A stretch of 64,000 nucleotides of DNA from Eledone cirrhosa (GCA_964016885.1 OZ024743.1:33046001-33110000), one strand, 5' to 3'. Counted from the stretch's first letter, positions 46,121 to 49,366 are shown. Translations and numbers: made by a program. The notes: generated by a model not told the origin, from the letters alone.

Positions 46121-47740
46121 CTACACAATTGTAGAAATCATACCACTGAATCGAACCAGGTCTGTCAGTCTCAGACATTGACAATCCATTCATCTCATGC
46201 AAGCATGGAAAGTGGATGTAAAATGATGATGATGGTAATGATAATGGCTTTTGATGAAGGCAACAATAACAAATATAATCAACACTGTAGATTTCAATTG
46301 AAACCATATATGATGGAAGTTTTAATCGTTAGATATTGTTGTTTTTATTGAGATATTACAGAAAATTAAGAGTGAGAATTATATATTAAATTACATGTTT
46401 CATTAGTTATAAACCATTAGCTTTATTTGTGTAAAATCAATCTCTTTATAAAACGATATTAATAAATTAAAAGGGCAAAATGTATATCGATACTTCGCAA
46501 TATGAATGGAAAATACATAAAATTTTATAAATATTTAATTTATCCTATTGTCTTTATGTTCTTGATCTATGTAGATCCTTCCAACCCTTGCTAGCAGGGA
46601 GAGCAGGCGCTAAAAGGATTGTATATATATATATATATATATCAAATTTGAAATTTTCCCAGTGCTTCTTAAATCAATCGCTTTCTTTACTCTTCTAGTT
46701 ACAGGCTTCAAATCTTCCCAAGAGATAGAATTGGCAGCTTGTAGCTCGTTAGTGTAGTGGTTAAAGCACTCACCAAGAAATTTGATTCCTTACAAGTGCC
46801 TTTGTCCATTATCTCTAGGGATACTTTACTTGATTTTCACAAATACTTTTTAGGGTGATCAACTATCATTATCTCTACATTAGGCAGCACAGATTTCAAA
46901 TTTCATACATCAATGTACAAGAGAATTTCCTCCATATGCACCGATGTTCTAATTATATATATATATATGTTTTCTAATATTAAATGTTGAGTATTGAATG
47001 TTTGACTTTGTATCATAAATCAGCTATTATTTGCTTGTATGTATGTATGTATATATGCATAACCCTATTACACATCTATACTCCATTCATGAATACTAAC
47101 ACTTCCAATCCCATCCATGCCTCTCATCCCAACTGCTAACTCAACCCAACATGACACAACTCAAGGTTTTCGCTCTCTCCCCCCTCTCTCCATCTCTATA
47201 TATCTCTCTCTAGATCCCTTCTCTGTCTGATGGTTCGACATCTCCCCGTCATCCTTCCTCTGTTCTCCCTTCCTTTTGCCTTCTTCTCCTTCTTCATCTA
47301 TCTCTCCCTTTCCCCTCTCCACGCTTCTCTCCCTCTCTCCATCTTTTTACTCACTCTTCACTATCCTGATGGCCTCCAAAAGCAACGGTCAATTTTTAAA
47401 TATATATATATATATATATATATATATATATATATATATATATATATATATATATATATATATACATATATATATATATATATACATATATATATATATA
47501 TACATATATATATATATATATACATACATATATACATATATACCTACATATATATATATATATATATATATATATACATATATACATACATATATACATA
47601 TATACCTACATATACATATACATACATATATATATATATATATATACATATATACATACATATATATATATACATATATACATACATATACATCCATATA
47701 TATATATATATATATATACATATATACATACATATATATA

Positions 47741-48342
47741 TGGTGGCTGCCAACTCGTTTACGGCCACTACTTTATATCCATGTAGGAGAACCCCTACCG
47801 ATGCGCTGAACGAGTGTGACTTTTTAGTCTAGCCAGCGACTTGAAAACTCTAGTACAAACACTACACCTGTGACAATGATTGACACACAGTGCTGGGCCC
47901 ATGGTACCATGTGACGACAAGTGCAGAGAGATCTCCAGATATAAAGCAATGCCTGTGCCGTGAAGCTTTTATAGTGAGCAAAGGCACTGCACAAAGCCAG
48001 TCCCACTCTCTTAACCAAGATGTTATTTACCAAAAAGAAGAACAAGTCAACATCATTGGATACCATCAGGGTTGCAGGTGTTATATCAGAGTTTTCCTTC
48101 TCCTAGAATTCTGCCTTGACAAAGGCTAAGAGGTCATCTCTCCCGGTGATTTTGGATGGCCATTGACTCTTACGAGCTCCTTTGCCCTTTGACAGGTTTT
48201 GTTTTTAGTCCTGCAGGATGTCCATAGTCACCCTCCTCACCAAGAAACCTTGGTGGGGTTGCCAGTTTAGTCGCCAACGACCCGACCATGGGACAGGTTG
48301 TACTGGGATACATGTTACCAGTAGCACCAACTGGTGACCTGA
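47741..48342 (-). mobile_element. Non-autonomous bipartite RTE derivative, copy A (~600 bp)
   Basis: Reverse complement of 62052-62659. Has the RTE 5'UTR motif ctaggagaaggaaaactctga and a 6-nt deletion (ctcgaa) in the 3' stem-loop. Confidence 0.85.
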
Positions 48343-48964
48343 GAAGTTGCACATTGTTTAATTGTGATTGGATGTTTGGTTTGAAATTGAGATCGGTATA
48401 TTAAAGATTGGAATTTGAACATTGTAAAATGTATATATTGCTAGAGGGTTATCTGTCGCATATTACATACACATGGGTGGAGGTGCATAAATGTATGTGT
48501 GTGCACACTCACTCAGAAGGTGCATTCCCTGTGTTGTTAATTGAAGGTCGAGGGTTTTTAGTATATATATGTAGATATGTGGGTTTGACTTTCATGCATT
48601 TGTGGCTGTTAAGTTGTGCATATCTGCAATCAAAAACTGCATGTGTAAGCCTGTACATTCACATCCATAATTCTTAGCTATATGCATAACTTAACAGCCA
48701 TAAATGCATGAGGGTTAGTCCTATATATTTGTATATATGTGCTAAGAACTTTTGATTTTCAATTGATAGCACAGGGAATGTGTTTTCTGAGTGAGTGTGT
48801 ATATATATGTGTTTATGTGCCTTTGCCTTTGTGTGTGTAATATGCGATGGATAATCTCTCTGGCAATATATATATTTAATAATGTTTAAATTCCAATTTT
48901 TAATATATTGATCTCAATTTTGAACTAGATATCTAATCATAATTGAACAATGTGTGATTTCTCA
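48340..48964 (+). repeat. Long inverted repeat whose mismatches are G.U pairs (arms 48340-48623 and 48680-48964)
   Basis: Base-by-base pairing of the outer ~50 bp shows only Watson-Crick or G.U pairs on the + strand, and the pattern continues by eye. The loop is 56 nt. Confidence 0.92.
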
Positions 48965-49366
48965 TATTATGTATCTGTGTTCCATTCATGAATGTTAATG
49001 TTTCTAATTTTATTTGTGCTTTTCATCCCAGCTGTTGGCTCAACTTGGTATGACATAGCTTGGGGTTTTCGTTCTCTCCCCCTCTCTCTATCTCTATATA
49101 TGTCTCTCTGGATTTTTTCTCTGTCTGATGGTTTGATATCTCCCCATTATTTTTCCTCTGTTCTCTTTTCTTTTTGCTTTCTTCTTTTTCTTTATCTATC
49201 TCTCCCTTTCTTTTCTCCACGTTTCTCTCTCTCTCTCCATCTTTTTACTTACTCTTAACACAATGACTTACTAAAGTAAACAAATCACTATCCTGATGGC
49301 CTCCAAAAGCAACGGTCAATGTTTAAAGGGGTACGTCAATGTCTATTTGTGGAACTGTTATATATT

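Follow-up and report, generated by a model that had tools for sequence, protein, structure and literature searches.

RNA editing is normally not inherited. Retrotransposition leaves characteristic traces in DNA: L1 copies may carry downstream sequence by 3' transduction, and twin priming inverts their 5' part, in which case the flank joins the base adjoining the start of the uninverted part and the junctions show short overlaps.

Hyperediting of the A>G type has been described in the avian retroviruses RAV-1 and ALV (Felder 1994; Hajjar and Linial 1995, cited in PMC8586724), and G>A "DNA editing" by APOBEC enzymes has become fixed in vertebrate LTR retrotransposons (PMC4866542; PMC2873906). 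The screen in PMC4866542 was restricted to G>A changes in LTR elements and detected no such editing in invertebrates; the term "ADAR" is absent from its main text. ADAR hyperediting is also described for repeat-derived double-stranded RNA (PMC4365171; PMC9989829). In a survey of 22 species, a 5' U or A was favoured and a 5' G disfavoured, with a weaker and less conserved 3' preference (PMC9989829), and a human hyperediting map shows 5' G depletion and 3' G enrichment (PMC4365171). A search of the main texts of open-access papers returned no ADAR-hyperedited non-LTR copy fixed in an animal genome.

The DNA analyzed here, referred to as the window, is a 64-kb stretch of Eledone cirrhosa (G000:C4:33046001-33110000) within a 3.0-Gb assembly. 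It contains a block which is, with high probability, an insertion whose A>G changes in paired arms came from ADAR acting on double-stranded RNA, before a LINE enzyme reverse transcribed this RNA into the germline. The block shares with RAV-1 and ALV the presence of ADAR-type A>G clusters in an RNA that was apparently reverse transcribed into DNA, but the putative RNA is a non-LTR, non-viral composite, its copy is present in the assembly and in other samples, and the likely source locus, the target-site duplication and the 5' inversion are preserved. The likeness to APOBEC-edited LTR elements lies in deaminase hypermutation of a retroelement intermediate that yields a heritable, strand-biased genomic copy; however, the changes here are A>G on paired RNA, whereas APOBEC converts C>U on cDNA, with a different enzyme and a different substrate. 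As in hyperedited repeat-derived RNA, dense A>G changes lie in a long inverted repeat with 5' U or A favoured and G disfavoured, although in this case they are read from genomic DNA and are not enriched for a 3' G. Finally, the inverted 5' part, the internal flank join, the short overlaps, the target-site duplication and the carried downstream sequence resemble L1 twin priming, but the elements are putatively RTE-like, their tails are microsatellites rather than poly(A), and the inversion reaches the 5' start of the element.

The features of the block are as follows (window coordinates; SINE1 and SINE2 are the two SINE copies of the block, C2 is a sister locus at C2:389.367 Mb, and X1 is a public sequencing run):

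47055..47066, + strand: left 12-bp target-site duplication, the last base of which also belongs to the inverted arm
47066..47400, - strand: outer left arm, now inverted, with A>G hyperediting on the minus strand; a putative Penelope-like terminal repeat from which 29 bp are deleted
47400..47741, - strand: TA/TATG microsatellite tail of the SINE-like element, with interruptions matching those of the C2 tail at both ends (by eye)
47742..48342, - strand: SINE1, a near full-length copy of a ~604-bp non-autonomous element, unedited; its start would be the 5' start of the RNA
48340..48623, + strand: inner left arm, A>G hyperedited (40 A>G among 41 substitutions relative to C2); covered by a zero-difference X1 contig
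48624..48680, + strand: loop with the fold-back junction, unedited, all 18 A's being unchanged; the junction motif occurs twice in the genome
48681..49330, + strand: right arm, A>G hyperedited (34 of 182 A's changed); the inner part, up to 48964, pairs with 48340-48623, and the outer part, 48965-49330, would formerly have paired with the now inverted 47066-47400
49331..49560, + strand: outer end of the terminal repeat past the duplex, with sparse A>G (6 of 66 A's)
49561..50042, + strand: TA/TATG microsatellite after the hairpin, recognized from its sequence
50043..54859, + strand: nested endonuclease-RT LINE with a ~1180-aa open frame and its own 51-bp duplications (50043-50093 and 54809-54859)
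54860..62050, + strand: other repeats and microsatellites, among them a second endonuclease-RT LINE frame (55924-58785)
62051..62657, + strand: SINE2, full-length, without A>G excess; its 3' end abuts the right duplication and carries no tail
62658..62669, + strand: right 12-bp target-site duplication, directly after the SINE2 3' end

The initial annotation had described a ~620-bp hairpin with almost only G.U mismatches, and folding bears this out. On the + strand, 48340-48964 forms one stem of -401.9 kcal/mol (z -35; shuffles at about -153, with 0 of 20 equally stable), the main diagonal of which comprises 163 A-U, 66 G-C and 61 G-U pairs (229 Watson-Crick). The minus strand of the hairpin folds at only -229.5 kcal/mol, with 4 G-U pairs. 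Alignment also upheld the claim that the right arm continues as a direct copy of the sequence further left: 48965-49330 and 47066-47400 differ nearly exclusively by C/T and A/G in one direction, and a 29-bp deletion sets their lengths apart. The extent originally given, 47066..49326, covers the core of the feature, which is nevertheless larger and reaches the duplications at 47055-47066 and 62658-62669. The terminal repeat outer end (49329-49607) has a second copy at ~15767-16046, on the opposite strand, with 90% identity.

The arms were initially taken for an originally perfect, anonymous AT-rich palindrome. The A-U origin of the G.U pairs was confirmed, but the arms are members of a repeat family, with 512 first-look candidates in the genome, that elsewhere occurs as inverted pairs flanking an ORF. 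This ORF is 61% identical to that of a 4.4-kb insert in C2, and the atlas neighbours of the latter include GIY-YIG clusters (26-38% of members). The arms were tentatively called Penelope-like terminal repeats; a Pfam search with three Penelope-like ORFs gave no relevant match, an Rfam search for hammerhead ribozymes in 46500-50200 gave no match at E <= 1, and Rfam as a whole returned for this interval only sub-threshold miRNA matches, nearly all of them in microsatellites. A short hammerhead-like arrangement was noticed by eye at 49375-49420, in the outer end of the terminal repeat, with no Rfam match. An origin of the arms from a DNA transposon with long terminal inverted repeats was considered and dropped, since the ORFs between the inverted pairs look Penelope-like.

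The 12-mer forming the duplication occurs in the 64-kb window only at 47055 and 62658. The right flank of the block is an older repeat (the host repeat), of which nine non-self loci were fetched and six aligned. In three of the six (L069, L075, L077), which are equivalents of the empty site at other loci, both flanks are contiguous and the site is present once; the other three match the right flank only. The 12-bp duplication and these empty-site equivalents identify the 15.6-kb block as an insertion. The identical 36-bp ends of the outer arms, also considered as a target-site duplication, were rejected because they belong to the repeat itself. The flanks of the empty site (47030-47054 and 62670-62700) are imperfectly inverted copies of each other on either side of a short TA/TATG tract, the type of site occupied by the SINE1 family.

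Part of the block is inverted. The reverse of 47066-47400 joins 48340 in the repeat family with no base lost, and the inverted part extends as far as the 5' start of SINE1, which coincides with the 5' start of its family and overlaps the left arm by 3 nt (48340-48342). Turned back, 47066-48339 would thus give the order SINE, tail, outer arm, inner arm, loop and full right arm, readable as one RNA. SINE1 is 97-98% identical to 40 scored copies; in comparison with 12 aligned copies (two of 14 loci were dropped because the anchor was not found) it shows 10 substitutions, two of them A>G, and a 6-nt deletion. The junction overlaps amount to 1 nt (47066) and 3 nt (48340-48342). The join at the left flank and the position of the far end at the presumed RNA 5' start would fit twin priming, and the 5' inversion probably arose in the course of copying itself. 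The 3' end of SINE2 would be the priming end, although SINE2 may instead be a later insertion.

The LINE at 50043-54859 was probably inserted later than the block. Three LINE-type frames of ~950-1200 aa occur in the 64 kb (50094-54808, 55924-58785 and 720-4145), the first two of which carry RT and endonuclease domains. The SINE has a 68% DNA match to the 5' region of the endonuclease-RT LINE and shares 12 of 15 C-terminal residues with it, and the pair may be RTE-like.

A different history, in which the ADAR-edited RNA was retrotransposed colinearly and 47066-48339 was inverted later at the DNA level, or in which SINE2 and the right duplication represent a separate event, appears unlikely. The editing pattern would be identical under a colinear insertion, SINEs often stand in tandem in microsatellites (nine neighbours among the first 100 listed matches), and later insertions into the tail did take place. 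However, a later inversion would have had to break precisely at the left duplication and at the 5' start of the SINE, without the loss of a base between the arms, and a separate SINE2 event is at odds with the lack of a tail between SINE2 and the right duplication.

Evidence for the RNA from which the block may have been copied comes from C2. The fold-back junction motif is found at two places in the genome, in the window and at C2:389.367 Mb, and so is the junction of the 29-bp deletion. The order of elements at C2, all unedited, is SINE, tail, 4.4-kb Penelope-like insert, tail, deleted outer arm, inner arm, junction, reversed loop and microsatellite. The interruptions of its tail match those of the window tail on both sides of the insert (by eye), and the C2 SINE has one private variant in common with SINE1 (five copies compared), while the two differ at several other positions. 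C2 lacks the second arm and its loop is reversed. A 70-bp deletion is present in both arms in the window and elsewhere only in C2 (40 scored candidates), from which we infer an earlier, two-armed state of this locus. C2 is thus the likely source, although this would additionally require a flip of the loop and the loss of an arm. The public-run search listed no RNA runs holding the source or the copy. The insert in the C2 tail (L038:4717-9115), 4.4 kb long and Penelope-like, has long inverted termini and contains a frame of 678 aa.

The polarity of the changes was determined against the column majority of 17 aligned family copies, including C2 (18 non-self loci were fetched, and L019 was dropped because the anchor was not found). 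Relative to this reference, A>G accounts for 44 of 46 differences in the reverse of 47066-47400, 41 of 44 in 48340-48680 (+ strand) and 42 of 52 in 48681-49570 (+ strand). Relative to the C2 copy alone, the corresponding values are 42 of 45 for the outer left arm, 40 of 41 for the inner left arm and 34 of 41 for the right arm. The polarity is therefore as predicted: A>G on the + strand was found for 48340-49570 and T>C for 47066-47400, the family having A or T at the changed sites. Mismatch classes are far from balanced: C>T on the RNA strand was detected once in the outer arm and never in the other segments, and the three segments together contain two G>A on the sense strand, compared to 123 A>G.

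The changes are limited to what can pair in the reconstructed RNA, with the exception of 6 of 66 A's in 49331-49570 (family reads have A at all six); the expectation that they all lie within the duplex thus holds apart from this thin trail beyond it. Changes affect 117 (~26%) of the 457 A's that pair in the reconstructed duplex, but none of the 18 in the loop. The changed A's are preceded by U in 64 of 163 cases, by A in 48 of 160, by C in 3 of 57 and by G in 2 of 77, and the depletion after G, in comparison with the other 5' bases (2/77 vs 115/380), is highly significant (p = 8e-9). No preference for a 3' G was observed (18 of 73 vs 99 of 384 A's changed, p ~0.88-0.90), which is the sole departure from the described ADAR context. 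Matches to the adenosine-deaminase domain PF02137, a family that also covers ADAT1 and ADAD, were found at four places in the genome.

The outer arms are now direct repeats, unable to pair on one strand, and editing therefore preceded the inversion. This agrees with the signature itself, which flips strand in the inverted segment (minus-strand A>G, 44 of 46), as the initial annotation had argued in considering the changes older than the inversion, and it dates the editing before copying.

ADAR can edit DNA in RNA:DNA hybrids, so that adenosines might have been deaminated not in RNA but in DNA, either in a cruciform or in a hybrid formed during copying. ADAR1 activity is also reported to be linked to R-loops (PMC7955049). 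Nevertheless, we regard such a route as very improbable: if the cDNA of a hybrid had been edited, the sense strand would show T>C, and the loop and the SINE would have been changed as well, while the observed changes follow the RNA strand as it was before inversion and the limits of the duplex. Moreover, C2 is unedited, and other edited copies are found in a ratio of nine sense to one antisense.

Error-prone reverse transcription by a Penelope-like or LINE enzyme, without any contribution of ADAR, is a still weaker candidate and scarcely credible as the cause of the A>G runs; both kinds of element are abundant here and have long open frames, but errors of a polymerase should fall in the loop, in SINE1 and on A's that follow G as well. 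The changes with their context, the duplication and the sister locus are observations; deduced from them are the act of transcription, the enzyme, the route of copying and the order in which the nested elements arrived.

The presence of the edited bases in DNA reads was confirmed for one arm. Run X1, which may be the assembled sample itself, yielded a 332-nt contig (48315-48646, depth 8) without a single difference, spanning the SINE junction and the whole left arm. In a different study, each of the three RAD runs covers parts of the left arm at a depth of ~1 and a likeness of at least 94%, whereas an unedited copy is ~85% alike to the edited left arm (hand count); judged by likeness and not by read letters, there would be about one edited read per RAD run. 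The right arm has no unambiguous support, since X1 shows coverage holes there and its reads over 48620-48770 could stem from C2. None of the checks that the initial annotation had named as refuting its reading gave a contrary result.

As hard to believe as polymerase error is C>T decay of a GC-richer ancestor (by CpG methylation or an APOBEC- or RIP-like process) or an assembly or polishing artefact: TG-opposite-CA mismatches do mimic CpG decay when the two arms alone are compared, but the 17 family copies and C2 carry A or T at the changed sites, a polarity that excludes both CpG decay and APOBEC-type change, the edited left arm is present in a public contig and in reads of other samples, and no transcript made from the present arrangement could have acquired edits on both strands in such a pattern.

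The following course of events would account for the block. The starting point would be the C2 locus, which in its present unedited form contains the same SINE, tail, deleted terminal repeat and fold-back junction. In its earlier, two-armed state this locus would have been transcribed from the SINE via the tail into the hairpin, giving an RNA duplex of ~620 bp, in which ADAR presumably deaminated paired A's (~26%; U>A>>C>G) to inosine, read as G by reverse transcriptase. Target-primed reverse transcription would then have proceeded from the SINE2 3' end back to 48340, SINE2 having either belonged to this RNA or served as an initial template from which the enzyme jumped. From the second cut end, synthesis would have started at the neighbouring base and run through the outer arm, tail and SINE1 to the RNA 5' end, leaving these parts inverted by twin priming. 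LINEs would have been inserted into the microsatellite tail later. The insertion can be seen as a fossil of germline RNA editing, with no function implied.

Is the window an isolated case? The SINE motif has 34,373 matches in the genome, and edited copies were sought with motifs containing four or five UA sites, most of which had to read G. The two motifs gave 8 and 3 sense matches (nine distinct loci), and one and zero antisense matches, respectively. Ten other loci with A>G clusters, nine sense and one antisense, were thus identified. In 13 flagged sense pieces from the ten loci, 186 of 276 substitutions outside the motifs are A>G and five are T>C, though L060 and L063 show few changes outside the motif. 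The screen covered A>G clusters, and these pieces were chosen for their A>G excess; the independent part of the result is the neighbour bias: 5' G is again depleted (17/200 vs 169/714, p = 8e-7).

In eight of the ten loci a same-strand SINE lies within ~0.8 kb downstream, mostly unedited in its last 100 nt. As a baseline, nine of the first 100 exact matches listed have a neighbour on the same strand within 1.7 kb (a hand count and an undercount). This arrangement, which is also that of the window, suggests that priming favours an intact SINE 3' end, L059 and L063 being exceptions.

A paired partner is absent from the fetched stretch in most of the ten loci, and a G-T-biased inverted partner is present in one (L067). 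At the latter position (G000:C1:213.53 Mb, L055/L067), an 84-nt antisense piece of a SINE 3' end has 15 A>G on the RNA strand and adjoins a sense SINE in which the matching part is nearly unedited, that is, editing was one-sided. The tails after the edited SINEs of L059, L062 and L065 look G-richer on the sense strand than typical tails (by eye) and are possibly edited UA repeats. With regard to the terminal repeats, a genome-wide search for hyperedited copies returned the window only in one orientation and none in the other, each motif being estimated by us to catch less than half of edited copies.

Whether these copies reflect a general process is, in our judgement, evenly balanced. ADAR hyperediting may act here as a recurrent heritable mutagen of non-LTR retrotransposons, in which read-through RNAs bounded by SINEs undergo editing in the germline and return to the genome, at a frequency of ~1 in 1,000-3,500 copies and mostly when the 3' end of an unedited downstream SINE primes; edited UA tails may feed the abundant TATG-interrupted microsatellites.

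The locus described here keeps most of the links between an edited RNA and germline DNA, namely the sister locus, the duplex-limited A>G changes in an ADAR-type context, the strand flip and the target-site duplication, and the ten other edited copies indicate that RNA edits likely become inherited now and then. The rate at which ADAR edits enter genomes, the past neighbour preference of germline ADAR, and whether elements edited at their 3' end fail to retrotranspose would all be countable from assemblies alone. Some A/G differences between repeat copies would then be fossil edits, which matters for editing calls and for the dating of repeats. If the host is a coleoid cephalopod, the finding bears on a lineage known for heavy editing.
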